Source: Pseudovirgaria hyperparasitica (Eukaryota). From it: a stretch of DNA of 64,000 nucleotides. The position numbers and the translations under genes are program-made. The stretch lies in assembly GCA_010093815.1 (NCBI GenBank), contig ML996573.1; one strand, given 5' to 3'. A model generated the notes under the pieces. That model worked only from the letters and a program-made list of their open reading frames with translations. It made no database searches and had not been told where the DNA came from. Within the stretch, counting starts at the first letter, position 1. The number at the start of each line of letters is the position of its first letter. This document shows positions 3,753 through 48,572 of the stretch, in pieces.

Positions 3753-4325
3753 CTTGAGTTGTATGCTGCTTGAGGCAGCCAGTTCTGAACGCCTACGGGC
3801 TTTGGTGTGCAACAAATGCAAGCTAATTCGAACAGTATGCGACGTCTAGTATGAGGCCCTAGAGTATATCGATGAAGACTACGAGGTTTGGCAAAGAGTT
3901 GGTGGAGTGCAACGATTTGAAGCGGTAGTCGAGATTTATAAGGTTGGCATCCCGGCTGGAGAGTAGTCTTGGAGCCAATGATATCATATTAAATTGATAT
4001 TAGTTGCGAAAGTGGGCCTAACCCTACTAGTGCTCGGTCTGCCATATCCGCGGCTATAGCACACAGCACACCATGCCCTAAATATACACATTAGAGTAAC
4101 ACTTTAGTTCCAGTGTGCAACGATATTTGCAAATAGGTATGCCTACCATATGTTGTTTGATAGCAGACAGTCAGTACTGCTTTCTGGCCATGGCCATAAC
4201 ACGAAACGTACAATCAGTTTTATGTAGAATTCAACCTCGAGGTCGACACCCATCCTGACCAAACGCCTCAGCTATACCAGAAGAAATGCTATAGCTTCGT
4301 CAATCGCCTCCGGAGATGCGACATA

Positions 4326-7357: not shown

Positions 7358-10033
7358 ATGAATGGTGATCTCAGTCTTTCCCAGTCTCTGGGCGGCCTGC
7401 GCATTGCGAATCCCGATCACGACACATCGTCTCCCTCACCACCACCAGCACCACCACCAGCACCACCACCAGCCACTCCTGCTATGCACTCTCCGTCCTC
7501 TCACGCAAATCCACAGACCTTGGACTCTTCCACAAGGTCAGTAATTGATCAACGCAGGTCACAGGGTGTACTACCGTCCCTGGACTCCGACGATACCTCC
7601 GCGCTCGGCTCTCTAGGCTTCAATCCGGAATCCTTCGTACCATCGACTTCCGATTCATACCCTTTATCCCAATCGTCTAGCCCTGAGCAATCAATGGCAG
7701 ACTCACGATTATCACACCGGCAATCATTGCCTCTCGCCCACCAAGCTGCAACACAAGCACTCTATGGCGCTTCCTCAACCTCGACCCGCTACCACCCATC
7801 CTCCAATCCAGCCTCTCGTCCAATGTCCAGCATCTACAACCATCCGAACATTTCCACAGGTTCAGGCATCAACTCTGGTGGTACCTACAGATATAGAGAC
7901 GATTCAATTGGTCAGACCTCTGCAGTTGGAGTCAACCGGAGCAGCTCAAGAGCGGCTGCAGTTGCACTGCAGGCTGGTATGCCGACCCGGGTGACAAGTC
8001 AAAGCTACAGGGCACCGCAATCGAACTCTATTGCTAGCGGAGCAGTTCCTCCACGAAGACCATCGAGACGGGTCCCGGAAGGTCAGCTGCCACTATCAGG
8101 TTCATCCTACGGCCTCGAGGGTGGGACTATCTCGAGCACCGAGGACTGGAAAGATAGGGGGGCTGCAATCAGAGTACAACAAGATGTTGACGCAAATGGC
8201 AAGCCGATCTCAAGAGTAGTGAAAAAGGGCATCCAAGATTTCCAACTCGGTAGAACGTTAGGAGAGGGCTCATACAGCACAGTGTTTGCTGCAACAGATC
8301 GATCTTCTGGGCGAGAATTTGCTATCAAGGTTCTAGACAAGCGACATATCATAAAAGAGAAAAAAGTGAAATATGTTAATATCGAGAGGGACACCTTGAA
8401 TCGACTGACAGAGCACCCTGGTGTCGTTCGACTCTACTTCACATTTCAAGATGAACGATCGCTTTACTTTGTACTCGGCATGGCAAATGGTGGCGAACTA
8501 CTTGGATTTCTGAAGAAGACCGGAACGTTTAATGAAGAGTGTACAAGGTTTTATGGTGCGCAAATTTTGGATACGATCGATTATATACACACAAGAGGCG
8601 TCATACATCGAGATTTGAAGCCGGAGAATGTCCTCCTGGACGAGCAAATGCACGTCAAGATCACAGATTTTGGTACTGCGAAACTTCTTGATATGAAGAA
8701 ACCCTATGGAGGCACTGGGGTGACCTCTGGCGATCCCCTAGATGGCGCGGATATCGATCGAGCGGTGTCCTTTGTTGGAACGGCGGAATATGTAAGCCCT
8801 GAGCTACTGACGGAGAAGAATGCTTGCAAGGCTAGCGACTTGTGGGCGTTTGGGTGCATGATATATCAGCTATTGACGGGTCGGCCGCCATTCAAGGCAG
8901 CGAACGAATATTTGACTTTCCAAAAAATAGTAGGCCTGGATTACACGTTCCCGGAGGGATTCCCTCCGTTAGCGCGCGACCTGGTAGAAAGACTTCTCGT
9001 CCTTGATCCGGCTCGAAGGTTACCCATTGAGCACATCAAGAACCACCAATTCTTCGATGGCATCAACTGGGGTATCGGTCTTTGGAAGGAACGCGCTCCT
9101 CAACTCAAGCCATATAACCCATCTGCACCAGACGTCTTCCAAACCCAATCTGGTATTATCTCTGGTGGCCTATTCTCTCGAGCTTCAGCTGTACAGCCTC
9201 ATGCTACAGCAGGCCCTTCCACGATCAGCCCAGCCGTCAGTAGTGCTCCTTTACGACCCCACGCCCCAGCAAGACTGATCACAGAACTGCCACCGCCGAG
9301 TCAGTTGGACATCGAATGGTCGCCAGTACTCACCAAAACGAATGAAAGGATTTTGAAGCTTGGAAATCTCACTGTAACATCAAGTGCTGGACCTCATTCT
9401 CCAACTGGAAAGACAGCCGAATCCGAAACGCCGAAAAAGTTCTCTAGATTCTTTGGGGGCAGCTCACAAAAGAAAAGACAAAGACTGGTCATGGTGACAT
9501 CTAGTGCAAGAGTCGTTCTGGTCCCAGCTGGCGGAGAGGAAAAGAAAATGAAGCAGGAGGTCTCACTCTTGACACCGGGTACCACTTACAAAAAATACCA
9601 AGATGCTCGAGGTTTGACCTGTTGGTGTGTTGAAACAGTAAGTCCAATTAAATCATGTTTTCAGCAGATGTATGCGGGATTAACGTTCGTTCAGCGTGAC
9701 AAACACATCGTTTTTGAAGATCCTAAAGCCACTACAAGCGATCCCGACGGCAGTGCATTCTCGTGCCAGGAATGGATGGATGTCATAGAACGAGCCAAGG
9801 AATTCGCAATGCAACAACATAATGCCAACTCTTATTCTGTGGAATCGTTCAACGATATGGGCTCAGTAATTTCCAGTCCGTCTGGCAGTTTAGGAGCGGA
9901 TGCCGCTCTGGAAGGCGTAGATGTCCCCCGAAATCGATATCTTTTGAAGGATCACGGAGACAACGATTCTGTCAAGAAGAAGAACCGTTTCAGCAAACGA
10001 GTCTCTAAGAATGGACTAGCAGCTGTCTTCTGA
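7358..10033 (+). CDS. ksg1: PDK1-family Ser/Thr protein kinase (Ksg1/Pkh1-like) with C-terminal PH-like domain
   Basis: GEGSYSTV, AIKVLDKRHIIKEKKVKYV, HRDLKPEN, DFGTAK, SFVGTAEYVSPE; probable intron 9638-9694. Confidence 0.93.
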   Translation: MNGDLSLSQSLGGLRIANPDHDTSSPSPPPAPPPAPPPATPAMHSPSSHANPQTLDSSTRSVIDQRRSQGVLPSLDSDDTSALGSLGFNPESFVPSTSDSYPLSQSSSPEQSMADSRLSHRQSLPLAHQAATQALYGASSTSTRYHPSSNPASRPMSSIYNHPNISTGSGINSGGTYRYRDDSIGQTSAVGVNRSSSRAAAVALQAGMPTRVTSQSYRAPQSNSIASGAVPPRRPSRRVPEGQLPLSGSSYGLEGGTISSTEDWKDRGAAIRVQQDVDANGKPISRVVKKGIQDFQLGRTLGEGSYSTVFAATDRSSGREFAIKVLDKRHIIKEKKVKYVNIERDTLNRLTEHPGVVRLYFTFQDERSLYFVLGMANGGELLGFLKKTGTFNEECTRFYGAQILDTIDYIHTRGVIHRDLKPENVLLDEQMHVKITDFGTAKLLDMKKPYGGTGVTSGDPLDGADIDRAVSFVGTAEYVSPELLTEKNACKASDLWAFGCMIYQLLTGRPPFKAANEYLTFQKIVGLDYTFPEGFPPLARDLVERLLVLDPARRLPIEHIKNHQFFDGINWGIGLWKERAPQLKPYNPSAPDVFQTQSGIISGGLFSRASAVQPHATAGPSTISPAVSSAPLRPHAPARLITELPPPSQLDIEWSPVLTKTNERILKLGNLTVTSSAGPHSPTGKTAESETPKKFSRFFGGSSQKKRQRLVMVTSSARVVLVPAGGEEKKMKQEVSLLTPGTTYKKYQDARGLTCWCVETVSPIKSCFQQMYAGLTFVQRDKHIVFEDPKATTSDPDGSAFSCQEWMDVIERAKEFAMQQHNANSYSVESFNDMGSVISSPSGSLGADAALEGVDVPRNRYLLKDHGDNDSVKKKNRFSKRVSKNGLAAVF

Positions 10034-17142: not shown

Positions 17143-18141
17143 TCATGATCTTCCGAACTGATCATTGAGATATTCGACAAAGATAGCCTTGATACGTGCC
17201 TTGTCCAGACTATGTTGCCTATTAAGCTGTATGAATTGTCTCCGTAGCCTTTGTAATTGTGGTAGCGAGAGTGGCGAAGCAGGTAGCCCGATCTGCAGTT
17301 GCGCATCGGGTAGACTTACGGAGCCGCCAATCTCTCCTGGATGGTCCGATTGATACGCCTGGATACGAGTCAATATTCCAGAGGTAATGTGATCCATTTC
17401 GTAGAGGTAGTTCTCCGGAGCGGCAGGTTTCAACACAGTGGCGGGATTTTGGCGAATCACTTTTGTTTTACCATCGCTACCGATTATAGCCTCCCATATA
17501 GACTCCAGGGGAGGGCTATCGTCCTCGAAAGGGACAATGAAGCAAGGCGAATCCCATCGAGTCATACCGTTTGGCTCTTCGTAGCGAAAGAGAAGGTTTT
17601 CAAAATCTTCATCACTATAACGTAGCTCTGGGGGTCGCCTGGCGTGTAGGTCGCGACACTTGTCTATACTGATACCAATATGAACCTCTGGGATTGTCAG
17701 TCGAAGTGTAACGAGTAGTGGAGAAGAAACGCACCACGCAGCTCGGTGTCTGCAGAGCTTTGGCCTCGCAATAGAGCTGGTATCGAAAACCCTTGATGTA
17801 GTTCATGCTGTCTGCGATAACGATAACGTCTCTTCCAAGCACTCTCTTGACGGCAGAATATTCTGCGGCTCTTGCATCTTTCTCGGTCCGTGCAGTATGG
17901 TAAACATGGCGCGATAGGCCTAACGATTCGTCGTTGATGTGGTGAACCGTAAGACGAGATACTCTGGGATCATTTGAGGTCAAGATCTTATCTTGGAAGA
18001 AGTTACGCAGCTGAAGCGAGCGGTAAGTTTTTCCAGAGGATGGATAACCGGATAATAAGATGAGCTAAGATGGTATAAATGAATATTAGGCGGCCGATTT
18101 AGTAGAGATAGAATTTAGAGAAATATTAAACTTACCGGCAT
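17143..18141 (-). CDS. KTI12: Elongator-associated protein KTI12
   Basis: ATG CCG|GTAAGT micro-exon; LILLSGYPSSGKT P-loop; NYIKGFRYQLYCEAK; FRYEEPNGMTRWDSP; LQRLRRQFI. Confidence 0.95.
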
Positions 18142-18199
18142 TACTATAGCAAGGCCGAAGTAAATCTACTATTTAGATTCTATAAACGCGAAGACACGT

Positions 18200-19240
18200 A
18201 GTTAATTAGATATAATAATCTTGTTTAGCTATATACTACTCTAATACTAATATTATTTTATAGAAGGGATATAGTATTAGAAAGACTCTATATAGCTATA
18301 TTATATAACTTTATACTACTATCTAGTAGAATAAGTAATTATATATTATCTTAATTATTATTAGAGATTTTATTATTATAAGTCTTTCTATATTATATTA
18401 TTATCTATCTATATAATTAGAATTCTTTTTCTAAGCTTAGTAATATTCTTCTTAGTTTTTACTAATAGCTTCTTATATCTTTTAAGAACTTTAGTATTTA
18501 TATACTATATATAATAGAAGAGATATAATAAAATACTATTTTATTTTCTATCTAGATCTCTTTCTCTAATACTAGAAACTAATATATATTATAGAAATAT
18601 TAAATATTATATAATAGCTCTATAAATACTTTATAAGTATAATATAGTTAATATTTAAGAATTCTCTACTATTCTAATATAGATAGATCTAGATATATAT
18701 ACTAGAAATACTTTAGAATAATCTATAGAATTAGTTAAGAGATTTAATATCTATATCTAGATCTCTACTTTTAAAAACTACTATATTTATTTAGATATAT
18801 CTAAGATACTATAGTAGTAATAGTCTAGCTTTTTAAAGAGTCTATATAATATTTTATTCTATTTTCTTATAGTAACTATAATACTATAAGAGAGCTATAT
18901 AATATAATAGATTAGACTTATATTATATATAAATAGATATATTAGTTAGAATAAGAATTATAATAATTAAGCTTTAATTACTTAAATTTTAAGTTTAAGT
19001 TTAAGTATACTAGTAATTTTAAATTTAAATTTAATTTTAACTTTAAGTTTAGATTAAGTAATCTCTTATACTATTAGATTAATATTTCTATAGATTATAT
19101 CTAATAAAAAATTTAATAAAATAGAATAATTAAATTAATCTTTAATACTAAGTAGCTTTTAGATAGAAATACTAGAGAGATATATACTTCCTTTATCTTA
19201 CTTATATACTTTATTATTATAGAATTTATTACTATATCAG
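18200..19240 (-). pseudogene. ~1-kb RIP-destroyed island, probably a former protein-coding sequence
   Basis: Extreme TpA enrichment between normal genes; one minus frame (~18840-18375) reads LFKKLDYYYYSILD...KVLKRYKKLLVKTKKNITKLRKRI with only TAA/TAG (RIP-type) stops. Confidence 0.45.
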
Positions 19241-20854: not shown

Positions 20855-22411
20855 CTATGCTTGGCGTAGTAGAGCTTCGAAGCCTCTTCGAAGGAGGTCA
20901 ATAGACCTCTCCTCAAGGGTGCCATCTACAAGGCTAGACGATATATCAAACACGTTGAAGTTTTCCGCGAGCTTCTCCCTTTCCTCGACCTTAGCTAGAC
21001 TAAGTGATAATGGTAAGATTTCTTCCATAAACTTATTAACAATTTCATATCGACAGATAATGTCTTCAGCAGCAATAACCAAGTTCTGCACATATAGCGA
21101 GAGCTTTGTCATGGAGGGGTCAGTGTCTAATGTAGAAGAAGATTGAGCTTTGAATAGCTCTTGATAAGTCCGACGATACCGTTGCAAGGTGTCTGGTGAA
21201 TCTTCCCACAGTCCAGTGGGCTCGATACCGCGCTCCATGTCTTCGTTCCATGCGTACATGGCCGGATCCCAATCCCGAGTAAGGAATGAAGGTAGTGTTT
21301 CATTTCCAATGCTGCGAGGCACAACTGTAACACCATCCCAGTCAATTAGGCTTTGCAGTCGGCCTTGTGGGGAAACAAGGATATTTTGAAAGTTAAAGTC
21401 CGGATGCGTAAGGACGAATGGTGTCTCGGCTTGGAGATCAGGAATCCAGTCGATAAATAGCTCAAGTAGCTTCCGGATACCTTGGTGCACAGGACTGGAG
21501 GGTGGCTCTTCCCTGTCAATAGCATGCCGGTAGAATGCACGGGGGGAGATAAAGGGGCCAGCAGTGTAGTACAATGGCGTTTCATCGTCGTCATTTGTAT
21601 CCAATCGTTCGAGCATGCGCTGATGGTCAGTACATCTCATAGGACCAATTTCTGTGATGTCGCCATCTTCACCAAAAACTGGTGCACCTCCAGTTTTGAA
21701 AGCAAACCGATCTAGCTGGATCATGGCTGCTGCCAGATCTTCCAAAAGCTGCGTTCTACGAGCCTGTAGCTCATTCGTGGCGATGGACTTGTCAAACCAG
21801 ACCTCATACGCTGAAGCCCCGTCTGCGAAACTCATAAGGATAAAGGGAACTCCTAGATCATTATCGAGGGAGGAGTTGAAAGAAAAGATTTCTGGGACGG
21901 GTATTGACGTGCTTCTTCGAATAAGACGCATGGTCAAGGCCTCCGATCTGAGGGCAGCGGCGGATGTAGAATTGAAATGTTCTTTTGTTCCAACGGCAGG
22001 AACCTTAAGAATCCAGCGAACATTGTCTTGAAATTTGATTAGAAAAAGAGTATGATAAGATCCAAAAAGGTTTGGCTCGAGAGTAACGTTTAGCCTCTGA
22101 GATGGAATGAATTGTTTGCCGAATGACGGCTCGATGCGCTCACGAATTTTTATACAAAAAGGGACAATATTCTCTTGCCGTATCGAAGCCAGAACTTCGG
22201 AGAATGACTGCCTATCTTCTTCACCGCTGTCTTCTGCATTGCTGTCTTCTGCATTGCTGTCTTCTGCATTGCTGTCTTCTGCATTGCTGTCTTCTGCATT
22301 GCTGTCTTCTGCATTGCTGTCTTCTGCATTGCTGGCGGCTTCATTACTGGCGGCTTCATTGCTTAAAAGTTCAGATGGCTTGATTGTCTCGAGAGGCGAA
22401 TTTGTCTGCAT
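20855..22411 (-). CDS. Aminoglycoside-phosphotransferase (APH)/kinase-like protein
   Basis: GSYH..IKFQDNVRWILKVP, SEALTMRLIR..TSIPVPEI, FVLTHPDFNFQNILV, LIDWDG; intronless. Confidence 0.88.
   Translation of the reverse strand: MQTNSPLETIKPSELLSNEAASNEAASNAEDSNAEDSNAEDSNAEDSNAEDSNAEDSNAEDSGEEDRQSFSEVLASIRQENIVPFCIKIRERIEPSFGKQFIPSQRLNVTLEPNLFGSYHTLFLIKFQDNVRWILKVPAVGTKEHFNSTSAAALRSEALTMRLIRRSTSIPVPEIFSFNSSLDNDLGVPFILMSFADGASAYEVWFDKSIATNELQARRTQLLEDLAAAMIQLDRFAFKTGGAPVFGEDGDITEIGPMRCTDHQRMLERLDTNDDDETPLYYTAGPFISPRAFYRHAIDREEPPSSPVHQGIRKLLELFIDWIPDLQAETPFVLTHPDFNFQNILVSPQGRLQSLIDWDGVTVVPRSIGNETLPSFLTRDWDPAMYAWNEDMERGIEPTGLWEDSPDTLQRYRRTYQELFKAQSSSTLDTDPSMTKLSLYVQNLVIAAEDIICRYEIVNKFMEEILPLSLSLAKVEEREKLAENFNVFDISSSLVDGTLEERSIDLLRRGFEALLRQA
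22226..22360 (-). repeat. 15-bp coding tandem repeat, (NAEDS)x7 plus 2 degenerate units
   Basis: gctgtcttctgcatt x7 at 22226-22330, then gctggcggcttcatt-type units. Confidence 0.95.
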
Positions 22412-24108
22412 TGCGATGGGCTGCCTTTTACAGAAATACGAACCAAGCGGAAGATTTGTATCTCTATGTGGTTCGTAACAACTTCTCAAGGCTGGCCGTA
22501 AGTATCTGGATGATAAATACTCCGTGGTTGTCCGAGAATCCCGCCGGCAACAGATTGTGAACCTTTCTCGCCATTCGAACAGACTGACGCATAGAAATGC
22601 AAGTTATTAATAGAGTCACTTATTTGAACTGTCATTATCAGCTGTACCATAGATGATCGTACTTCTAGCACCCCAAGACGGTCCATTTCTGTTCCTTTAC
22701 CGCCCGGCTAGATCTGTTACCAATCGCATTGAACCGCCGACAGGTAAGCGCTGAGAGCTTTACAACGAGCCCAAGCGTTACGATTTGGAAGAGCATTTAC
22801 CAATAAAAGCAGTACGAACGTTTCTATGGGAAAATGCACATCTCGGCACGGCGAAATCGATAGGTTGTGATGTCGTCTAGGCGAAACATAACAGCCACGA
22901 TGCGCCGGGTAGCCTTGTGCCTCCCGAAGTCGACTGCAGAAAGATAGAAAGTTACAGGGCCATTACTCTGGTAGTGACGTGTATAAAGTATCGAGTTAAT
23001 GCTACTAATCTACATATTCATATATCAGACATATTCAAAGGATCGATCTAGCATTACTCTAAGTCTCTTAGCTAGGCTCTATTATAGATCTAACGGAGCC
23101 GAGAAAGAACGTTAGGTACTATATACTCTTTACCTAGTCTATATTTAAGCTCTAGGTTAAACTATAATAGATACTATAAGACCTATACTAGTTAGAAATT
23201 TAGCTTATTAACTAATAAGCTTATAAGTACTATCTACTAAATAATATTTAGTATAGCTATATAGTTAGTAATAATAATTATTAGTTAGTCTAAACTATTA
23301 ACTATATAGTATATTTAATATATAGTCTATATAACTACTACTACTTCTAGCTCTATTAGCTAGTAATATAACTTAGCTAAAGAGAGTTCTTTACTAAGGT
23401 ATAGAATAGACTTAATATCTAATTATCTAATCTTTATAATATAATCTACTTCTTCTTTAATATAATAAGTAAAGACTCTAAAGCTATACTTTAATATATT
23501 AATATCTATATAAAGCTATTATTTTAGATTATAATAGATAAGCTTAGTTTTATCTATAAAGATAGTCTAAATACCCTTCTATAATACTAGTAGCTAGTCT
23601 ATTTAAGTAATCTTTATTTATTTATAGTATACTATATATATATAGTCTACTAAAGGTACTTTCTTAAGAAGATATATTTTCTCTATCTATAGATTCTAGA
23701 TAAGTTAAATATAATATAGTATATATTACTATAACTAACTAGTTAGTCTAAGGTAGTACTTAAGCTTATTAAGTATATTAGAATACTAGAGATTATATAT
23801 AGCTACTAATTTCTTAGCTATAGTAGAGAGTCTATAAGTATTAACCTTTTAGCTAAGAAGAATAATAGATAGATATTCTAAGTAATACTTTTTATCTTTA
23901 AGTATTAGGTTTCTTATCTATAGAGTAGAGAATATCTACTAAAGATAGTTAAGATACTTATTAAGTTTCTTACTAAATATAGAAATATTATTAATATATA
24001 CTATAGTAAACGCCTTATATCTAGCTTTATATAAGATCTTATTAATCTATCTCTATATATATAATAGAGAGTTATAGAAATCTATTAGAATAATATTTAA
24101 CTACTTCT

Positions 24109-24336
24109 TATTAGAACTTAGTCTTAGGTATAACCCGATCCGTATATACCTTAGCTAACCTAGTTAGAAGATAGCGTGAAGGGTAGTAAATAGTTATATA
24201 TTAGATAGATTAGTATCCCTTTATATATATACTCTTAGATTTCTACTAATAGAGTTTAGTAGTAATTTATTCTATAATAGAATATACTCTATTATTCTAT
24301 TTAACTATATTACTATCTAATAACCCTATTCTTATA
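24109..24336 (+). repeat. 5' LTR of element B (228 bp)
   Basis: tattagaact...cttata (RIP of TG..CA), direct repeat of 31321-31548. Confidence 0.92.
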
Positions 24337-27300
24337 TTTAAATTACTCTCTATATAGTACTATAGTTAAGATAGTCTAACTAGAACTAAGAAGGTTAATA
24401 TAATCTACTATAGAGATAAGTAATACTATATTAAATAATAGAGATTCTCTATAATTAGTATTAATTCTAGCTATTCCTAACTAAGAAGTAGAGATATTAG
24501 ACTAAATTATAGAGCTTTCTAATAAAGAAATAGTAGATATACTAAGTAACTTCTAATAATAAGAAGCTAGATAATAAGTTATAGCGGAGCTATATAAGAT
24601 ATTATAATAAACTATTACTAAACTATAGAAGTATATTACTAATTAAGTCTAAGAGATCTAGATTCTTAAAGAATAGACTAAATATATAAAACTCCTTATA
24701 AAGAGATAAGAACTTAAAAAGTCTCTTAATAAACTACGCTAAATAATAGTAGATAAATAACTTTCTATACTAATTTAGGTAGAATTAGTTTACCTACTAC
24801 TAGAGTTATAATAATCTACTATACTCCTAGCTACTTTATTACTAATTTATTCTACTTCTTCTCTAGATATACTAAAATCTAAAGATCTAACTATATTTAT
24901 AGAGAAGAACTAAAAGAAGTAGAAAGACTAGAAGAGAGACTATAAAAAGTACTTCCTTAATAACTCTCTACTCTTTTCTACTAAAGTATAATATATTTTA
25001 TTTAGAGAATAATATCTAGACTTATAATTCTATAATTAATAGAATAGATAGAAGGAAGTATAGCTATTATCTATAATAACCTAGAAATATTTAGCTATAT
25101 TTATACTAAATACCCTTAGAATAGATAGAGAATATAAAAGAAAGATACTATCTAAGTTAAGAAGTATAGTATAATAACTAAACTAGATATCTACTTAACT
25201 ACTATAATACCTTTAAAACCTATAGAATAATATCTCTATACTATAGAAAAATATTTATATATTCTAGTTTTATAAAGTACTACTTCTATTAATCTATAAA
25301 AGACTAGAAATAGTATTATTAAGTTTTAACTATCTATATAAATTAGAGAAGAAAGCTAATAAATACTACTATATTCTTAAGAAATATAGCTCTCTAGATA
25401 AAACCAACAAACCCTATATAGATTAGAAATAAGATTAATTAAATATATTTAATTAAGAGTAATCTTACTATAATTAGTACTAGAAGAGTATAAATTAGAG
25501 TAGAAATATATTAAGAAGATACTAAAATAATTAAGGTAGTACTTCTTAATATAGAAAAGAATAAAATATAGACTTAAATATAATATCTATTATAAAATAG
25601 TAGAATTATAGTATACTTTATTACTATAAGTATAGAGAAATAGAATATATTTTATCTAACTATAAGAATCTAAAAAAAGAATAGACTAATATATAAGATC
25701 TAACTATATTCTTAGCTAAATTATATATAATTAGAAGAAGCTATAGTATCTTCTAGTAAGTAAAGACCTAATATTACTAAAAGTATTATTATCTATAGTA
25801 AATAGTAATAAAACTATATAGGCCCTTATAGATACTAGTATAGAAGATAATTATAATATTTTATTAATTCTTATAAAGGAGTATAGATTATTATATAATC
25901 CTAGTAAAGTTAGCTAAACTATTATAGTTAATAGATATAAAGTTAGAACTTTAGATAAAGCTATAATAAATTATAAAGTTTATAACTTAAAGATAATAAA
26001 ATAGTAGATATCTAATAAATTTATTATAGCTAATATTAGGTAATAGAATATGATTCTAGAGATACCTTAGCTTAAATATCTAAACTCTATTCTTAATTTT
26101 TAGAAGAAGATATTAATATTCTATTAATATTATAATAAATTATACTAGTAAGTTATAACTATTAGTAAGAAGATATAGAACCTTACTATATAGACTTAAT
26201 TATTACTAATCTATCTTATATCTCTATTAATTATTAATAAAGATAAGAATAATAGTAATAATTAGAGCAAAGACACGCTATCTAATATATATTTATAGTA
26301 TATAGATATATTTTTAGTAGAAGATATATTACTTCTCTCTAATTATAGACTATATAAGCTAAAGATTAAGCTTAAAGAGAGAGTAGACATCTCTTATAGT
26401 CTACTTCATCTACTTATAAGACTAGAACTTAAAGTTCTTTATAAATATATTAAAGAATACCTTAGAAGAGACTAGATATATTATAGTATATTATTAGCTA
26501 GTATATCTATTCTCTTTATAAAGAAGAAAGATAGAAGTTTATATCTATATATTAACTATTAGATACTAAATATAGTAACTAAGAAGAATTATTATCTATT
26601 ACTACTAGTTAGTAAATCTTTAGACTAATTAATAAAGATAAAGTACTTTATAAAGCTAAATTTATAAGATATATATTACTAGCTTTAAATTTATTATAGA
26701 GATAAGTAGAAAACTATATTTCAGACTAGATATAGTTATTTTAAGTATACTATTATACTATTTAGACTAATAAATATACTAGAAGTATTTTAAGAATATA
26801 ATAATACTATACTTATAGAATTACTTAATATAATTTATATAGTTTATCTTAATAATATACTAATTTACTCTAATAGTATATAAAATTATAAAGAATATAT
26901 AAAATTAGTACTAAATTATCTAAGATAGTATAAACTCTATATAAAATTATCTAAATATAAGTTTTACTAATAAGAAGTTAGATTTCTTAGCTTTATTATA
27001 ATATATAGCGGTCTAAAAATAGAGCTAGAGTATATAAAGACTATTATAGAATAGCTAGAATCTACTACTATATATTAAATTAGAATATTTATAGGTTTTA
27101 TAAACTATTATTATAAATTTATTATAGACTTCTTATAAATTATAGTACTACTTAATAAACTTATAGAGAATAGTAGTAAAATCTCTATAGATAGGCGAGT
27201 ATAGTATAAAGCTAAGTTAGTTAAGATATAGTTAATACTAGAAGTATAAGATATATTCTAATTATTAAAGAATTACTTTATAACTATACTAATTCTTAGG

Positions 27301-29474
27301 TATTTTAATTCTAAGAAGTATATTTAGGTTAAAACTAATATATTAGAATTTATAATTACTAGAATTATTAGTTAACTATATAAGGATATAAAAGATAAGG
27401 TATAATAGTATCTAGTTACCTTCTTTTTCTATAAAATAGTAGATATAGAAACGTATTATAATATATATAACTAGAAACTACTTATAATTATTAAGAGTTT
27501 TAAGTAATAGTAATATTATTTAGAAGGTTCTATATATTAGATTAAATTATTATTAGATTATATAAATCTATATTACTTTCTATTAACTAAGGTCCTTAAT
27601 TACTAATAAGTATATTAGGCTAAGTAGATATTAATATTTAATTTTAAAATCTTATATAAAGCTAGAAGAGAGAATAAAGCTAATCCTCTATTACGGCGTA
27701 AAGATTATAAGAAATTATTATAGAATAATATAGATAGTTAGTATAATTTAGACTATACTATACTATAGATACTATAAGACTAGTTATCTAATAGAATACT
27801 AGAAGCTAGAATACTTTTAGCGATTCTCCGTAGGAATTAGAGTAGATATTAAGTAATCTAAATAAATATCTAAGAAACTAAGAAAACTCTTAAAGACTTA
27901 ATTAAATCTATCTAGAATTCTAATATATTAGTAAAGAAAGTTATAAGTATAAAAGAAAGTGCTATAGATCTACTATAGTTATTAAGATAGAAATAATAAT
28001 TAGATATAATCTACTTCTAAGACTAACTCTATATACTAGAAGACGGCTTATAAATTAATATTTTAAGGAAATAGTATAATTATATATTAGTAGAATACTT
28101 TAGTATTATAAGAATAGTTAATTTAATCTAAAGAATATATAACTAGCTAGGTCTTTATAAATATATAAAGAACTATATAAAAATATATAACGTCTACTAG
28201 TATATAAAAGTATATAGATACTTACTATATAGTAAATTAAGACTATTATCTATACTAAAGAAGATATAGAAGGAATTATTAATAGATTTTATTATAGATC
28301 TACCCCTAAGTAAGTATTTTAGATATATTTATAATAGTTTACTTATAGTTCTAGATAGATTTATAAAGATATTATACTATATCTCTATAAGAAAGATAAT
28401 CTAAGTACTAGATCTTATAGATATACTACTCTATAATATAGTTTAGCTCTATAGTATACTAAATAGTATAGTTTTAGATAGAGATCTATAGATAATATCT
28501 AAATTTTAGAAGAATTTCTACTATATACTAGGAATTAAGTAGAAACTTAGTACTATATTCTATCTATAAATAGATAGATAGATAGAACGATAGAATTAGA
28601 TAGTTAAGGTATATTTATATATATATTATAACTATAAGTAGAGTAACTAGATAAGGTTAGTCTATATTATAGAATTTATATATAATAATAGCTAATATAT
28701 ATTAACCTACATAAGTCCGTTTAAAGTAAACTTTAGCTAGAACTATAATATATAGTTCTTAGAAACTTAGTTTAAAGTAGAATAACCTAATATTAAAGTA
28801 ATAGAAATTACTATAGAACTATTCTAAATATAAAGAAGTATTATAAAGTTACTATAAGATACTATAGATTATAGTAAATTATACTATAATAAGGGTAGAA
28901 AACCTATAATCTTTAATATTAGAGATAAAGTTTTACTAAATAATAAGAATATTTATAGTATTAGACTAAAGAAGAAGCTTAAGTATATAATAATAGATCT
29001 ATATAAGATTACTTATATAATTAATAACTAGACATACGAGTTAAAACTCCCTCCTATATTAAAGATATATAATATATTCTATATTATACTTCTTAAGCTA
29101 TTTTATATCTTATTATTACTAGATTATTCTAAATAGATACTATATAAAGTAGTTATATAAGAAGGTATAGATATCTATAAAGTTAAATAGATACTTAGCT
29201 AATAACGCGCTAAAGATAGTATATAGCTATATAAAATTTATTAGAAAGGATATAATTCTAATAAAGATACTTAGAAACCTATAATAAATATTAGTAAAGT
29301 AGTAATATTAGTATATAAGGAGCGATTAGTAAAGGAAGCCGTAGAATTATAGAGAATTATACTAAAGTATAGTAATTTAACGTTTTTTAGTATAGTTTAG
29401 TACTAAGAATAGCTATCTAAAAGGAAGAAGGTAAAAGAAATATAGATCTTTAAAATATTCTAAGGAATTAAGAA

Positions 29475-29552
29475 AACTTCCTTAGAAAGTTTAAACTTAG
29501 AACTCCCTTAGAAAGTTTAAACTTAGAACTCCCTTAGAAAGTTTAAACTTAG
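29475..29552 (+). repeat. 26-bp tandem repeat x3 downstream of pol in element B
   Basis: aactcccttagaaagtttaaacttag x3 (first copy has one mismatch). Confidence 0.9.
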
Positions 29553-29879
29553 AACTTTAAAATTTAACTAAAAAATAGACTTAGAAAAAATAATTTACTA
29601 AGAGAAATAGATATTAAAAATTAGTACTAATTAGTATAGATTAGTATAGATTACTAAAGAAATTAAAGAAGTTATTATTAAAGAAAGATAAAATTAAGAA
29701 AACTAGAAGAAAATATAAAGATCTATATAGATCTATATAAACCTATACTAATCTATCTAGAAGAAGTAAGATTACTTTAAAATTAAAACTAAAAACTAAA
29801 AATACTAGATAAAAGAAATATATTAGTACTAATTAGTATAGATCTAAACTAATTAAGATAGAGTAGAAGTAGAAGTACT

Positions 29880-31100
29880 AATTACTATAATAATTATATC
29901 TAATTTCTTCTACTAGTTCTTATTTAGTATAGTATAGAGCTTTATAATATAAGTCTCTAGCCTTTTATTCTAATACTATAAACCCTATATAACGCGTCTT
30001 ATAGCTATAAACTCCTCTATAGAAATCTATAAAGTAGTAGAAACTAGGGTAGAGAGAGATAGACTAGTATAGATATACTAAGAATTATATAAATTAGTAA
30101 AAAGATTTAATAATTAGTATAGAACTATATATCTTTAGTATAGAAACTTCTAGATTAGAGCTATCTTCTCTAAATTTATAGCTCTTAGATATATATAAGA
30201 AAGAAACCTTAGCCTTTTTACTAGAATCTTTTCTAGGAATTTTAATATTACTAGTATATAGAAAGAAGTCTAAAGTAGTAGAGATTTTAGTACTATTATA
30301 GAGATTAATATATATTAGTAAGAATCTATAATAATTTAAGAAAAATAATATTACCTAGTAATCGCGGTAATAATAGCTATAGTAGATTCCGCTAAATCTT
30401 TATAGATTATATTAGAATTATACTTCTAGATATACTTCTTACTATATTTATATAAATTATAGAAAGCCTTTTCTAAGGTATTATAATTAGTAGTATTATA
30501 CTTCTTATTAGTAGGGGTTACTAGAGGTCTAGTAGTAATCTATACTAATATAAGTAAATCTATATAAAGTCCTTTAAACTTATTTAAATACCTATAAATA
30601 ATAATACTTCTTAGTTATATAAGTACTATATATTATAGATTTAGTACTACTATAAGTAAGGTATAATAGAAAGTAATAACTATAATAATATATAGCTAGA
30701 TTATTAGAGTCTAATCTAGATTAGAGTAGATTAATAGCTTTTAATATATTAGTAATATATACTAGATAAGAATTATTTAAAGGCGTTTATTTCTATACTA
30801 ATTACTTCTAAGTATTAAGATTCTAAGAAACTATATTATAATTATTATTAGTTTATATAGATTTTAGTAAATTATTATTACTATTAGCTATATATACTAT
30901 AAAAATTAGTAAACTATATAAAATTATAGTAAATTATAGTAAATCTATATAAATCTATATCTATAAGAATTAGATAATATATCTAATAATCTAAAAAACT
31001 CTATAATAAGTTATAAAGTTTTTTAAGAAAAGGAATATTTCTAAGAAAAGATTTTAATATAGATAGTACCTAGACTTACCTAATTATATTACGTAATATA
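29880..31100 (-). pseudogene. Antisense multi-exon accessory gene inside Gypsy B (Cys-rich motif plus C-terminal coiled-coil-like segment)
   Basis: Three phase-preserving minus-strand introns (30540-30591, 30293-30354, 30078-30132) and another acceptor at 30897; outer boundaries approximate. Confidence 0.7.
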
Positions 31101-31320
31101 CTAGGCCTAATTAGATAATTCCACCTATATAAGAATTAAGAATAGATAAAATCTAGTTTACTAGAAAAACACTTATATAAGTCTTAGATTAGTAAGTATC
31201 TATATATATCTAAGATAAAGTATAGAGAACGACTAAGGTCTTATAAGACTTAGAATAGAAATATAGAGATAGATAATAATCTAGATTACTAAGAGTAGCT
31301 TTCTAAAGAAAGGGGATAAT

Positions 31321-31548
31321 TATTAGAACTTAGCCTTAAATATAATCTAATCTATATATATCTTAGCTAACCTAGTTAGAAGGTAGCGTAAAGGGTAGTA
31401 AATAGTTATATACTAGATAGATTAGCGTCCCTTTATATATATACTCTTAGATTTCTATTAATAGAGTTTAGTAGTAATTTATTCTATAATAGAATATACT
31501 CTATTATTCTATCTAACTATACTACTATCTAATAACTCTATTCTTATA
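31321..31548 (+). repeat. 3' LTR of element B (228 bp)
   Basis: Follows PPT, followed by TSD cttct. Confidence 0.92.
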
Positions 31549-32640
31549 CTTCTAGTCTTAGTATAATATAAATATTAATTTATAATAGTCTTTCTTAGTA
31601 ACTAGCTACTAGTAGAAGAAGCTAGCTATATTAATAATAGATATAAACTTCTTTCTAGCTATATATTAGATAATATTACCCTAAAGTAATAATAGATAGA
31701 AGTCCTTAATACTAATTTTATTTAGGTTTCTTATATCTCTAATTATCTAACTAGTATTCTTATATAATATTTAGATAAGTAACTTTACTATAGAGTATAT
31801 AATAAATATTAGAAAACTAAATAGTATTAACTATATTAGATATTCTATATACCCTTATATATAGAGCTTATTATATATCTTATTAATAATAGTCTTACTA
31901 CTTACCCCTAATAGATAGATATAGTAGCTTAGCTTTATACTAGTTATTTTCTAGTTACTTACTAGAGAAATATATATCTAGTTTTTCTCTAGAATATTTA
32001 TAAGTCTAGTATTATAAAATAAGCTAGTATAACTTTAGATAATATTATTAAACTTCTAGATAGTTACTTTATCTTTAGTATAAATTTTTATACTAAATAT
32101 ATCTATCTATTAAATCTTATTAAGCTAAGTAAGCTTTATAGATAATCCCTCTATATTATCTAAAGAAACTACTTTAGTCTAAAATATATAGAGAGTATCT
32201 ATTTTATCTATTAATATACTAAGTCTTATATTTTTATTTATATACTAATCTAAATCTATAGTTTATAATAAATATATATACTATATTTTAGTTAGTAAGA
32301 TATATATAGATACCTCTATCTTAACTAAGCCTTATACTTATATATATTAGAATAAATATATAATCTTCTATAGTAAACTTATACTAGTAATAGATTATAA
32401 TTAGAACTAGTATAAGTATTTATAGATAGAGAATAGTATACTATAAAATAGTTACTCTCTAGTATACTACTAGTTAAATAATAGTAGTAAAGGTTAGTAT
32501 AGTAATTCTACTATATATACTAATAGTTATTATATATATACTTATATAGATATCTATCTTCTAAGATACTATAATATCTATTCTAAGAAGGAGATCTCCT
32601 TATAGATAGTTAAGAATATATATCTTATATATTACTTTTA

Positions 32641-35600
32641 AAAAAAAACTTCTTATACTCTAAGGGACCAAAACTAGTTAATTTAGAGTAATATAGTAAT
32701 CTATAGATATTAATTAATAGAGTATACTAAGTATAATAACTTCTAATATATATATATATAATATATATATAATAGTACTAATATATAGAGATACTATATA
32801 TATATACTTAAAAACTCTTTAGAGTAGTAAGTATAGACTAATACTAATAAATACCAATATACTAACCTTTCTTTTTATTAGTTAAGGGTAGCCCTTAACT
32901 AATAATTATAGCGGCCTTAGATACTAATATACCCTAGCTTCCGCTAGATATATCTCTACTACTAGTATAATAGAAATAGCTATATAATAGTATATTCTAG
33001 AATAACTAAACTACTATCTAGAAAATAAAAAATAACTAAAGATATAAAATACTATAGATAACTAAGATAGAGAGAACTCCGCTAGGGGATACCCTTATAG
33101 ATAAGATTAAATACTAGATAGTATATATAGAAAGAGAGGTTAAGAAGAGAGAGACTACCCTTCTTAATATCTTCTAGAGCCTAGTCTAGAATATTTAAGA
33201 ACTTACTATAGAAGTAAAGTAGATACTAGAGTTAAACCTAGAGTCTAGACTAGACTAGATTAAGACTAGTCTATTAAAGATCTAGATAGATCTTATCTAG
33301 GAAAAATACTCTAGTATATAGATATAGATTACTATACTAATAGATAGTATAACTAGAATAGCTTAAATACTAAGAATATCTAAGAGAGAAGTATATAATA
33401 TATAAGTTACTATCTAGAAGAAGAAAGTACTTATATAATAATAATAATAATAATATTATATAACTAGGTAGAGTAGTACTCTATGCCTAGGCCTATGCCT
33501 CCTCTAGTCTAAGCTACTATATAAGAAGAAACCTAAGAGGGAAAAACTTCCTTATGTCTATAACTACATCTCGTTAAACCTCTGTTTCGTCTTAAGTATA
33601 TAGCTATAGGGTACACCTATTAGCCTATAGCCTATATTACCGTTATTTTACCCTTAGGTAGCACGTGTAGATACGGAGGTTATTAGTTAAGGGGTTCTTC
33701 CGGCATATACCGGGTTTCCTCTAATATATACCGGGTTTCTTCCGGTATATATTTCCGGGTCTACTAGAATTAGAGGAGTAGTAGGTATATAATTATCTAC
33801 CGGGCGACGTCCTTAGGGTACTTATTAAGCTATCGTACGATATCGGAGGTTCTTATCGTATAGATAAGCTTCTACCTTTACGTGTAAAGATCGGGGCATA
33901 TTACGAGATAGTAGCGTATTATATCTCTCCGGCCGTACGCCTTATACCATAGAGATATATTAGGGACGCCTCTCTTATAGAGGTAGTATAGAAGTTCTAT
34001 AGCGCCCGTTTAGGCTTAGAGGAGTATAGATGCCTAGGCCTTTATAAGCCCTTTATATATCCATTTACTTAGCTCCTTCTATGGTCCTTAGATCTACTCT
34101 AGATACCTATTCTACTAGGAGGCCTACTAGGCCCGGAGTGTCTCTTTCTACTTATCTTAGATCCATAACCGTATACTTCGTCCAAGCTCTCGAAGGCTCT
34201 ATTAGTCTAGAAGGGTATCTAGGTTATTCTTAATCTCTTATACTACTTAGTTTAAGTCTATTTCTATCGGGTACTTATACCGTAGTCGAGTCCGGCCTAT
34301 ATATAAGAGTACTTAATAGTATACGCTAACTCACGCGCGTAGCGCGGCGAAGGTATATTCTACATTTTCTATACGTTCCTATGCTTATTATTTAGTAAAG
34401 TATACCACCCTCTATATCTAGTAGAAGTTCTATATACTTATTATATTTATCTCGCGTCGTAGTAGCGCTATAGTAGTAGCTTTATATACACTAGAGATAA
34501 GACGGAGTATGCGGTTTTATATGGATTCGAGCTTCGTTTGCCTAGCCTATGTAAGGGCCGTATACTAGTACTCGTGTCCGTATATAAAGACTAGTCGTAC
34601 TATAGAGCCTCTAGTTCGAAGTCGGATGACTCCTATAGGTTTAACGTGCCCTATACTATTAGACCCTACTCCTGTTTTCGCCTTATCTTATCCCCTTTAG
34701 GCTTATACCTCTAGCTCTACTAGAAGAGGGGTATAACGCCTTATCTAGCTAGGAAACTACGAGGTTTACTCCTTAAACTTATATTACTAGCGTACGTACC
34801 TAGCGACACGTTCTATCTCTTTATAAATCGATACACGCATCCGTTCTCTCGGGCTATATAGTAGTCTCCCTAGCTAGGACGTAATCCCGCCTACTTCTAG
34901 ATATACTAAAGGTTAGAGCCTATTAAAGGGGTAAGGTCCTTAGAGCTAGTAGTTACTACTATATACCACGCCCCACCTTTAAGTATAGCTACTATCTAGT
35001 TTCGTGTTACCTATAAGGATCTCTCTATAATAGACCGACCGTGTCTTATAGGCGAGTATCCTTTGAATTCTATACGTGTATACTCGCGTGACGCGCCTAG
35101 GTAACTTAAGTATTCTCTACCTACTAACCCGACTTATTTCTACTACTTTTTAATGGGTCCCTATAGCCGTCTCTTATCTATATCCGTATACTATTATCTA
35201 TATATACTAGCGCTCTACCTCCTATAGTAGACTATAACATCTCTCGTACGCGGGAGCTACTCTATCTATTCTAGACCTAAGCGGTATCCTATATTAAGCG
35301 AAAGGTCTTAATAGAGTCGCGCTACTAGTGGTCGCGCTAGGCGTCTTAATAAACGTAGTTTAATACTATAGAAGAGTTAGCCTTAATAAGTTCATCCGTA
35401 GTAGTTTATAGTTACCCTTAACGTGATTTCTCGCTAATCCTTATATATCTAGAGCCATTTAAGCCTCGAGGTGTTCTATTACGCTACTAGGACTTCCGCT
35501 TTCTCTACCTATATGGTAAGGTAGATTCAGGCCTGCTTTTAATATAGTAGTAGCGCGTTAGATGGTTTTCTTATCCCGGTATTCTCGTGGACTCCTCTTA

Positions 35601-43310: not shown

Positions 43311-46300
43311 AAAACTTCTTACACCCTAACGGACTAAACTAGTTAATTTGGGGTAAAACAGCGATTTACATACATCAAACAATAGAGTATACTAAGTATA
43401 ACAACCTCCGACACACGTGCGTACGTATAGTATATAATACGCGATAATACTAATGTATAGAGATACTATATATATACGCTCGAAGACTCTTCGATAACAC
43501 GAGTATAGACTATATCTAATAAACGCCGACACGCCGACCCCCTTTTATTAGTTAAGGGCTACCCTTAACTAATAACCATGGCGGCCTTAGGTATTGTAAT
43601 ACCCCGGTAGACGCCGGATATACCCCTACTAGTATAGTAGAAACGGCTATATAGCGATATTAATATAGATAGCTAGACACCTATCTAAAATATAGGAACT
43701 AACTAAGGGTGCGAAGCGCTATAGATAATCTAGACTAAGAGGACCCTAAGAGGGGAGACCCTCCTAGATAAAATTAAATACTAGGTAATACGTGTAGAGA
43801 GGGACGCCGAGAAGAGAAAGAAGACCCTTCTTTATATATTCTAGGACCTTATCCGGAACCTAAGAGGAATTATAGAGGAAGAAAGGAAGTCGCTACGAGA
43901 GGAACCTAGTAGTAGACTTAACCGAATAGAAGCTAGCCTACGGAGAATCTAGAAAGAGCTATCCTAAGGTAAGCGCCCTAACACGTAGGCTTAGATTATA
44001 GTAACACCTAGAGCCACCGTACTAAGGACTACTAGAACTATAGATAGAGTATATAGTATACATGTCGTAATCTAGAATAAGAACACGCTAGCGTAGATCT
44101 AATAGATATCTCTAAAGGAAATTATAAATAAGATTAACGAATAGAAAGGAATGTAGTTAAGCGTCGTAGCTACTAAAGTTACGCTAGGTAGGGTAGTACT
44201 TACTACTATAACGAATACTACGTAGTAAAACATCTCGCGAGATTCGAATATAATAGATAGTATCTTCCCCGGCGCGTCTATTAGAGTAGCTATATACCCG
44301 ATTATAGTATATATAGTACCTATACGGGGATAGGCTATCGGAGCGGAGGATATTACGTGTATAGAATAATCTAACACGCGAAAATACCTAGAGATTAAGA
44401 TCGTAAAAGCGTGGTAGAAGAACCTATAGGCGATTAAGACGACGGCGAAAAAACACTCTACTATAATTATAGAGCTCTAAGACCCCGCCCTCGTATAATA
44501 TATTATATAGAAGGGATTCCTAGTAGAAGGAGAGCTCCTTATAGCCGAGCCATGGGATAGGGTATAGGTAATAATATAGTGCTTTAACTATTAAGGGTAT
44601 AGATATACTATATAAAGGTACTTATAGAAGACTAAGTGCGGATAGTGCCGTAGGGACCACGCTACCTAGGAGTGCCCTTATAAACCGTGAGGAGACGGAC
44701 TAAGAAACAGGGATATAGTATAGTATTTAAACTACGACGGGAAATACCCGTCGTGGTCGTTAACGTATATAAAATATAAATAGATCATAGAATATATTCG
44801 TACGATAAAAGCGAGAGGCGTAAGATAGTTATAGAATATAACATCTACCACGGGCCCTTCCTTTATAATACCCCTAACCTCCTCTCTAGAAGATAGTTAG
44901 ATAGGATAGTAGACTATCCCGAAGACGATAGGACGACTAAAAGGTATAGTTAAAGCCGCTGCCGCGCGAGGATAGTCGCGCCTCCAAGGAATAAGTATAT
45001 AGATATATATACTCTCTAGTACCTAATAAGGGACTAGAATATACTCTAAATTATATAGATAAATATATAATATAAAAGAGAGAACTAGGCGACGCTTCTT
45101 AAAGAGACCGGGGCCATAATACTCGCCATCTAGGAACCCTATAAATACTACTAGACGAGTAAACTAACCACACACCCCGGATACCATACTATATACCCTC
45201 TAGGACTAGAAAGACGAGTCCTCTTCTATATTCATAGGTTAATACTACTCTTATTATAGTCGTATACCGAGCGCGATAACCTTAGGATAATACTATACCT
45301 ATAAATAGATATAGGCCCCCTATATATATATAACATATATAACTAATAATATATACTTATACTAGACGAGATACTTAAGGGTACCACGGAACTAGGGTAA
45401 TATATCCTCCTAGAAGACTTTAACCTCTACTACTAATAGTAGGGAGGCCTAGCCATAGTAAGGGAAGAACTTAGAGTAAGGGAACTACGCACCCGCTACC
45501 ACGACTTTCTATACCTACTTATACCTATAGAATAAGTTATATAGAAAAAATATAAATAGGACGAAGACGGGTCTATACTTAACCTTACCTTCGCCACGGA
45601 GTATATTAGTTACCGGATCTAATACTACCGCCTAAGCTAGGTATAGACGGATTCCAACTATAAATATATAGAAACCGTAATAAATATATATACCCCGAAT
45701 AAATAACGGGGACAATAGATATAGAAGGATACTAACTAGAAAAAGTACCTAAAGGACCTAGAATCGGCGATCCTAGATCCCTCTATAGTTAATATATCTA
45801 ATAATCTAGCCATAGACTAGGCCGTATAGATACTCCTATAAATATACTAGAATACGAGAAATAAACACGTACTATACTAAATATACCGGCCCCCGGAAGT
45901 AAAGGGGATTCCTTAAGTATAGGAAAGTAGATAAGACGCCCAAAGGCTATATATACGCGTATACCGTACGAGAATACCCGAGTCGTAGAAAGAATAGAAG
46001 GAAGTAATATAATAACGCGATAAAGTCCTCCGTAACGAAAGGCGTAAATAGTAGTATATAATTACTAGTTAATAGACATGATACGTAATAGGGCTATGGT
46101 ATATAGCGAAATAGGCCAAGGGCGTAGACACTCCGACACCCCCGCTACTTATACCTCCCCTAATATATTAGGGGAGAATATACTCTACGAGCCTTAAGAA
46201 AACTAAGGCCCTACGGGAGGCTATATTCCCTCTCCCGGAACTAGTAGACCTATTAGATATTCACGGCGCTAAATATCTATATACGGTAGATATCCCTAAA

Positions 46301-48572
46301 GAAGTTACGGAGGAGGATATACTTAATATTATTAAGATACTCCTAAATAATAAAGTACCCGGACTAGATAGAATTCTAAATCGATGCCTAAAAAGTACTA
46401 TAAAAGTGACCCTACCGCTTATTACTTATATATTCTAAGTATACGTCACGTAGGGGTACCACCCCTAGAGCTTCTAAGTCGCCTATACTATTATACTCCC
46501 GAAACTAGGAAAGAGCCCTAACTCCCTAAAGGGATAGAGACTAATCGCCCTTCTCTTCTACCTAGGTAAGATACTAGAGGCTATGGTAGCGAAGAAGATG
46601 AGTACCGCGGTATAGAAATATAATCTCCTCCCTCCGAACTAGAAGGTAAAGGTAGATAGCTCTCTAATAATAGCTATCTAATATATTATTAAAGTCGTCT
46701 AGGCCGTATGGAAATAGGAACGGGTAGTATCGCTTCTCTCCCTCGATATAGCCGGAGCGTTTAATAAGGTAAACTATATAAGACTTATTTATAACCTCCG
46801 GATAAGACGAATACTAGAATGGATTATACGCTTTATATAGTTATTCCTTATAGGAAGAATAACTTAGATATATATCCCTAGGTACTAGAGCGAATATAAA
46901 GAGACGGTATATAGCATCCTATAAGGGAGCACTATCTCTCTAATTCTATTCCTCTTCTTTACGGTAGACCTTCTTTAAGGAATAAAGTATATAGAGGTAG
47001 TTAGATACGCCGATAATATATACCTTCTAGCTATTAATAATAATACTAACCGAACGTATAGACGACTAGAATAGGACTACGAGAGGTGCCTCTAGTAGGT
47101 AAAACGCCATAGAGTAAAGTTCGCCCTAGAGAAATACTAGCTTATGTACTTTATTAACCGTTAAGGGAAATAGATAACTAGGGAAGATAAATAACGCCCC
47201 TAAATCAACGTATTTAACGAACTACTAGTATAAAGTATACGCGCGCTCGGAGTTATACTAGATAGTAAGCTTAAATAGGGACTATAAGTAGTATACGCCG
47301 TCTCTAGGGCCCTCCGGGTAGAAGCCGCTATATAATAGATTATAGCCTCTATATAGGGAACCGCCCGGGATAAGGTACGCTAGCTATATATATCTATAGT
47401 ACGACCCGCCTTCACGTACGGACACGAGTGCTAGTATATAGCCCTTATATAGACTAGGCGAATAAAGCTCGAATCCATATAGAACCGTATACTCCGTCTT
47501 ATATTAGGCGTATATAAAGCTACTAATACGGTACTACTACGACGCGAGATAGACGTTATAAGTATATATAACTTCTACTAGATATAGAGGGTAGTATACT
47601 TTACTAAATAATAAGTATAGGAACGTATAGAAAACGTAGAATATACTTTCGCCACGCTACGTGTATAAATTAGTATATATTACCGCGTACTCCTATATAT
47701 AGACCGGAATTAAATACGGTATAGATGCTTAATAGAAGCTAACTCTAGCTAAGTAGTATAAGAAGTCCGAGATAACCCGGACGCTCTTCTAGACTAGTAG
47801 AGCCTTTAAGAACTTATAAAAAATATACGGTCGTGGACTTAAGATAAGTAGAAAGAGGCACTCTATGCCCACTAGACCTCCTAGTAGAATAGGTACCTAG
47901 AGTAGATTTAAGGGCCATAGAAGGAACTAAGTAAATAGATATATAAAGGGCTAATAAAAGTCTAAGTATCTATACTTATCTAAGCCCGAACGGGCGCTAT
48001 AGAACTTCTATACTATATCTATAAGAGAGGCGTTCCTAATACCTCCCTATAGTATAAGGCACACAGCCAGAGAGGTATAATACACCACTATCTAGCTATA
48101 TACCCTAACCTCTATATATAACAGTAATAGCTTATCTACATTATAAAGACTTTAGATATCGTATAATAGCTTAATAAGTACCCTAAGAATATCTCCTAAT
48201 AGATACTTATATATCTACTACTCCTCTAGTACTAGTAGACCCGGAAATATATACCGGAAGAGACCCGGTATACGCCGGTAGTAACCTAATATATACCGGA
48301 AGAACCCTAGGAGAACCCCGATTATTAGTTAAGGGCAGCCCTTAACTAATAACCTCCGCATCTACACGTGCTACCTAAGGGCGAAATAATAGTAATATAG
48401 ACTATAGGCTAATAGGCGTACCCTATAGCTATATACTTAAGACGAAACAGAGGTTTAACGAGATATAGTTATAGATATAAGGAAGTTTTTCCCTATAGGG
48501 TTTCTTCTTATATAGTGGCTTAGACTAGAGGAGGCATAGGCCTATAGAGTACTACTCTACCTAGTTATATAA

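Follow-up and report, generated by a model that had tools for sequence, protein, structure and literature searches.

A family-wide spacer between pol and the 3' LTR of a RIP-mutated, chromovirus-like Ty3/Gypsy family in Pseudovirgaria hyperparasitica, and the possible remains of an antisense gene within it

Extra genes running antisense to gag-pol are known in several LTR retrotransposons. The accessible part of one account (PMC7264820) lists antisense ORFs between pol and the 3' LTR in maize Grande, rice RIRE2, Silene Retand and Phaseolus PvRetro13 and, outside the plants, in Boty of Botrytis cinerea and Sclerotinia sclerotiorum. The gene in Boty is brtn (Zhao et al. 2011, Virology 417:248), which is cited in extracts of other papers as the additional ORF of BcGypsy1 (PMC8365987) and in connection with an element that has a chromodomain at the end of its gag-pol (PMC4227169); a Monilinia transcript is said there to resemble BRTN (PMC5987419). 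Some extra ORFs are described as arising by a process like retroviral gene transduction (PMC11963269), and extra ORFs on the sense strand also occur in some plant elements (PMC7264820, PMC11963269). Within the accessible portions of these sources, no antisense gene has a known function and the only fungal case is brtn of Boty. A literature search for antisense extra ORFs in fungal LTR elements found none beyond Boty.

The element considered here lies in a stretch of 64,000 nt of Pseudovirgaria hyperparasitica DNA (the window), and a first-pass annotation of its letters had described it as a chromovirus whose region between pol and the 3' LTR carries a spliced accessory gene in antisense. That annotation named plant precedents and missed the fungal one, the brtn of Boty-like elements in Botrytis and Sclerotinia (extracts of PMC7264820 and PMC8365987). 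To judge from those extracts, Boty is the nearest in layout: an ascomycete Gypsy element, with a gag-pol that ends in a chromodomain and an antisense gene between pol and the 3' LTR. The element examined here differs in having LTRs of 228 nt and in being destroyed by repeat-induced point mutation (RIP), and the two are likened by layout. Grande, RIRE2, Retand and PvRetro13 have their antisense extra ORF in the same position as that proposed here, but the plant cases named for Retand belong, in what is accessible of the sources, to lineages other than chromoviruses, with spacers of 2.9–6.6 kb and mostly with a TRP28 domain (PMC7264820; PMC11963269). Here the host is a fungus, the spacer measures about 2 kb, and neither TRP28 nor any other Pfam family was matched by the antisense readings, a weak test in view of the RIP damage. 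A further likeness, to the extent that the source describes it, is to HBZ of HTLV-1, where again a reverse-transcribing element has an antisense gene at its 3' end (PMC11963269). Such a gene can be spliced, since its intron runs opposite to the genomic RNA. HBZ, which begins in the 3' LTR, is itself spliced. HTLV-1 is, however, a vertebrate retrovirus with no sequence relation to the present element, and the likeness is one of layout, not of promoter or transcript. Most likely the element is a dead member of an already-known kind, that with an antisense extra gene of the Boty brtn type.

The element is complete and occupies positions 24109–31548. It is heavily mutated by RIP, at about 20% GC, and blastn found no second copy of this Ty3/Gypsy element in the window. 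The LTR pair was found as 232-nt direct repeats of 92% identity, and alignment then refined each member to 228 nt, the 5' LTR at 24109–24336 (+) and the 3' LTR at 31321–31548 (+), with an aligned core 92% identical. Their ends, TA...TA, are read as TG...CA altered by RIP. The pentamer CTTCT forms a 5-bp target-site duplication (24104–24108 on the left, 31549–31553 on the right), and a polypurine tract (PPT), AAAGAAAGGGGA at 31305–31316 (+), lies 4 nt before the 3' LTR. The borders are confirmed by a paralogous empty site, seen in two runs of one sample, each with a single contig in which 24090 is followed by 30 other letters and then by 31566; these letters match both flanks, with a single target pentamer, when C>T and G>A changes are allowed.

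Pol domains were sought with Pfam in plus frame 1 from 24340, stops being read as X. Reverse transcriptase (RVT_1, RIP-damaged, 26614–27000 (+), residues 759–887, E 2.4e-05), an RNase H-like domain (RT_RNaseH_2, 27256–27531 (+), E 0.00022) and the C-terminal SH3 domain of integrase (SH3_Tf2-1, 28924–29100 (+), E 1e-05) were met in that order, the last being the final pol domain that Pfam detects. Because of RIP, all of these matches, at E 1e-05 to 2e-04, fall below the curated cut-offs of Pfam. The other five frames of the internal region gave no Pfam match. By eye, the translation ends in a chromodomain-like motif at 29176–29328 (+), Y.V..IL ... WKGY ... DTWEP with X at two Trp positions, which I take to follow the chromodomain consensus; Pfam did not detect Chromo at the end of pol even at E 10. 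Used as a protein query, the ruined pol retrieved only two distant Gypsy proteins among 8,000 candidates, neither of them with a chromodomain. Those two proteins were used to fetch 80 Gypsy loci from metagenomes, and in these the ruined pol recovers intact Gypsy pol (74 alignments, best E 9e-38, 22% identity), so RIP damage of this degree does not erase strong homology.

The element lies in a 10-kb block of about 20% GC (23–33 kb), flanked by regions of 44–50% GC. TpA/ApT stands at 1.52 within the element, as against 0.87 for the adjoining 19–23 kb. Contigs of the same organism (run X1) differ from the block by A>G at 276 places and T>C at 232, as compared to C>T at 45 and G>A at 41, which is the signature of RIP. 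RIP produces transitions, not indels, and its canonical context is TpG to TpA. The element sits inside another RIPed repeat (23000–24103 and 31554–33000), with a summed contig depth of 3,430–9,041 on the left and 6,144–8,482 on the right. The contig across the empty site comes from a paralogous copy of this surrounding repeat without the insertion, and the part of it that crosses the site reads as unmutated. In a second sample of the same organism (runs X3 and X4), contigs match the single-copy flank at 22500–23040 without differences; those runs contain only short pieces of the element, most below 90% identity.

Between the end of pol at about 29328 and the PPT are 1,975 nt (29330–31304, 20.9% GC), in agreement with the roughly 1.9 kb of extra DNA noted after the chromodomain. 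One way for the proposed gene to fail was for this region to be unique to the present copy, and it is not. The summed contig depth in run X1 is 150,378–215,578 over 29180–31183 and 103,745–248,315 over pol; the depth is 5,507–9,041 (left) and 6,144–8,482 (right) in the RIPed flanks beside the element and 187 in the single-copy flank, so that the spacer is about a thousand times as deep as the single-copy flank, although contig depth is not a copy number. The spacer matches pol in depth, and is therefore shared across a very abundant family rather than being a private insertion. It is thus confirmed as a family-wide part of a very high-copy, chromovirus-like Ty3/Gypsy family. Part of it, 29400–29880, is made of short tandem repeats, a 26-nt unit present 3.2 times with 98% matches (29475–29556) and several shorter ones. 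Other copies vary slightly here, with one base missing at 29473 in most contigs (depth 32,969 of 37,471, run X1) and two extra A after 29558 in about a quarter of them.

The minus strand of the spacer is poor in stop codons along a path that changes frame twice. Stop maps show frame a open from 30720 to 30600, frame c from 30600 to 30360, and frame a again from 30360 down. In terms of the exons proposed earlier, the 3' part of exon 1 (30592–30720 (-), frame a) has one TAG in 43 codons, exon 2 (30355–30539 (-), frame c) has one TAG in 61 codons, and exon 3 with 12 further codons (30097–30292 (-), frame a) has no stop in 65. The core of the path, 30720–30097 (-), therefore contains two stops, both TAG, in 169 codons. 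For comparison, stops make up 8.3% of codons in the ruined pol frame and 9.5–16.0% in the other five frames of pol. Farther on, 29681–30096 (-), a possible 3' continuation in frame a or an untranslated tail, has 8 stops in 138 codons and a codon score that is not coding-like. Exon 3 (30292–30133) had been described as lacking stops, and so it does, but the open stretch is really longer, from 30354 to 30097. At 86 codons this is the longest in the whole RIP block, the next longest being 58, and the spacer holds no intact antisense ORF. When dinucleotide-preserving shuffles were made, 500 of the spacer and 500 of the 10-kb block, an open stretch of at least 86 codons appeared in 4 of the former and 21 of the latter.

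A further scan sought, over 360 codons and with no more than two frame switches, the path that meets the fewest stops. The best in the block, 29681–30760 (-), has 12 stops, while the best rival paths have 18 (pol, sense), 19 (pol, antisense), 28 (spacer, plus strand) and 22–25 (right flank). When the spacer was shuffled globally or in 300-nt blocks, the latter preserving local dinucleotide content, and the minimum was taken over both strands, none of 200 shuffles of either type reached 12 stops (means 21.8 and 22.6). Over 210 codons the observed minimum is 4 stops, reached by one of 300 block shuffles. The statistics support the conclusion that the minus strand carries an unusually stop-poor path with two frame switches, on a frame-path model that was chosen after the sequence had been inspected and that was read in a single copy.

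Such a path is consistent with a decayed antisense gene that perhaps had one or two short introns. The minus strand of the spacer may well be what RIP has left of a protein-coding gene, with a core at about 30720–30097 and a possible extension to about 29680; I hold this reading tentatively, my confidence in it being a little short of even. By analogy with brtn of Boty and the antisense ORFs of plants, transcription of the intact ancestor would have run opposite to gag-pol and started from a promoter within the spacer or in the 3' LTR. Its one or two short introns would have survived retrotransposition only because they are antisense to the genomic RNA, and its protein, again by analogy, might have acted on the element's own cycle. 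If this is true, a second fungal family, and a highly amplified one, would be available as a comparison in asking what these genes do, and if the gene has introns, they would be a natural example of how antisense orientation lets introns persist through reverse transcription.

All three of the intron sequences proposed by the first-pass annotation are present, with the lengths (52, 62 and 55 nt) and phases (0, 2 and 0) it gave. They differ in how well they join exons in frame. Candidate intron 1 (30540–30591 (-), GTATTT...TAG, 52 nt) and candidate intron 2 (30293–30354 (-), GTAATA...ACTAAT...TAG, 62 nt) are placed exactly at the two frame switches, a to c and c to a, and their lengths give the shifts needed. 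Neither is a unique solution. Intron 1 is one of five frame-compatible GT-AG options, two of which leave no stop, and intron 2 is one of three; intron 2 is itself free of stops in frame a, which an intron need not be. In both donors, moreover, position +5 is not the G that fungal introns usually have. Over 1,991 nt, the minus strand of the spacer region holds 75 GT and 146 AG, which make 448 GT..AG pairs 40–120 nt apart, 106 of them with CTAA[CT] in the branch window. Given this abundance, the alternative fits, the donors without G at +5 and the stop-free intron 2, the splice sites carry little weight.

In contigs from other copies, none of 12 indels listed (out of 14) falls at either switch. 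Since RIP makes no indels and these 12 lie elsewhere, the switches are taken to belong to the family, and introns or separate ORFs are favoured as their source over a private frameshift. Intron 3 (30078–30132 (-), AT...ACTAAT...TAG, 55 nt) is not supported. Its AT donor follows a G, a GpA context unexplained by canonical RIP, and splicing leads into frame c, with 6 stops in 66 codons as against 3 in 65 for unspliced frame a; the codon score mildly prefers frame c downstream. What survives of the proposed accessory gene is the family-wide spacer and the stop-poor path; the exact exon-intron model stays a candidate, and the regulatory or anti-silencing role first suggested, like transcription from the 3' LTR, is unsupported.

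The readings of the protein that had been offered fared less well. A zinc-binding pattern (CxxC and further Cys) had been obtained by reversing RIP in the translation, and it depends on Tyr codons, of which every frame here has many. In this copy the integrase positions that I presume to be zinc-binding His and Cys read, by eye, as Tyr, so a de-RIPed Cys reading is possible. A TAT codon may, however, derive from TGT or from CAT or be original, and with Tyr everywhere the Cys pattern is indistinguishable from RIP noise and is not evidence. The coiled-coil-like segment, which falls in the doubtful exon 4, is likewise not to be told apart from such noise. From this copy, destroyed as it is by RIP, nothing is expressible as protein.

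Searches for relatives of the antisense readings were negative in several forms. The frame-a reading of 29401–30720 found no match with phmmer among 1.84 billion representatives. In word-indexed searches the 86-codon ORF gave 11 candidates, and the frame-c reading of 30355–30614, compared with longer proteins, gave 65, none in either case at E <= 10. Pfam, run on four pieces of the minus strand, returned one row of 12 bits (E 0.075) that I take as chance, Rfam returned no match, and the best score in an Atlas search, 0.82 (recognition 896), is within the range of noise. Against the 80 metagenome Gypsy loci the spacer gave a single row at E 9.9, of little weight since those loci are distant relatives, and a degenerate pattern from 30354–30392 that tolerates reversal of RIP had no match in metagenome contigs. 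Although the ruined pol still finds its relatives, an accessory protein is shorter and less conserved than pol.

If the spacer is of coding origin, the gene need not have served the retrotransposon. A piece of a host gene or of a mobile element might have been captured in antisense orientation before the family amplified and then carried along passively, with no role in the element's life, as happens in outline with those extra ORFs attributed to a process like retroviral transduction (the available part of PMC11963269). A coding origin of this sort would account for the stop-poor path, host introns would persist in antisense orientation and account for the frame switches, and the lack of any retroelement domain in the Pfam search fits as well. 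I nevertheless consider capture rather unlikely, though a serious competitor, for in the contigs the spacer reaches the depth of pol, and the Pfam search met no domain of a host gene or of a transposase. A DNA transposon nested in the spacer was looked for separately and rejected: the best inverted repeat there scores 17, a score equalled in 12 of 100 shuffles, and so no terminal inverted repeat stands above chance.

It may instead be that nothing was ever encoded here, and that the spacer belongs with the repeat-bearing, non-coding 3' untranslated regions of many LTR elements, its stop-poor path being due to chance or composition. The tandem repeats at 29400–29880, with a 26-nt period that is no multiple of three, the lack of a homologue in the protein searches, the abundance of splice-like sites and the choice of the path after the fact all agree with this. 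So does codon usage, which is not clearly coding. On a score trained on the ruined pol, the core pieces rate +0.03, 0.00 and +0.07 bits per codon and the upstream piece of exon 1 rates -0.09; cross-validated pol itself rates +0.04 to +0.10, and the core is thus only borderline. The score is also confounded by strand composition, since it comes out positive for every one of the three plus frames in the repeat-rich part. Low-stop antisense frames can, furthermore, arise without a gene, as one frame antisense to the gag region likewise has few stops, 5–9 per 100 codons. Against a non-coding origin are the shuffles that kept local dinucleotides, which matched the path in 0 of 200 and 1 of 300 cases, the lower stop content of the core compared with the element's real pol frame, and a three-base periodicity at 29440–30339 (chi-square 17.0, p 0.009, where segments of pol give 10–21). 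Weighing these, I regard a non-coding spacer as improbable, if still a serious competitor to the remains of an antisense gene. That the spacer once held a third ORF on the sense strand, env-like or other, is disfavoured and very improbable, for despite the plant elements that have such ORFs (in the accessible parts of PMC7264820 and PMC11963269), all three plus frames of the spacer stand at 12.3–13.5% stops and the 28 stops of its best plus-strand path are within the range of the shuffles.

The remains of an antisense gene, the reading I prefer, could be given a more specific form: a spliced accessory gene unrelated to brtn or to known domains, whose product, perhaps a small Cys-rich nucleic-acid binder, helped a family of roughly a thousand copy-equivalents to amplify or to evade silencing before RIP. 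I think this version quite doubtful.

A few other features of the window deserve mention. In DNA of normal GC just left of the RIP block, 22182–22376 holds a 15-nt tandem repeat (unit CTGTCTTCTGCATTG, reported as nine overlapping copies of 75 nt), whose unit length keeps the frame and which probably lies inside a gene. At 18001–19000 a short, isolated stretch falls to 21% GC in DNA of 48–49% GC and may be a small fragment altered by RIP. The sequence at 32628–33305, on the right edge of the RIP block, recurs over 530–690 nt, at 70–72% identity, at 43311–43844 and 56064–56742, which are the outer ends of two LINE-like copies. RVT_1 matches lie between them at 46526–47227 (+; E 1.2e-10) and 52890–53510 (-; E 2.3e-06), both in blocks of 36–38% GC with mirrored AT skew, and these look like inverted non-LTR copies arranged around an AT-rich centre at 48–52 kb.
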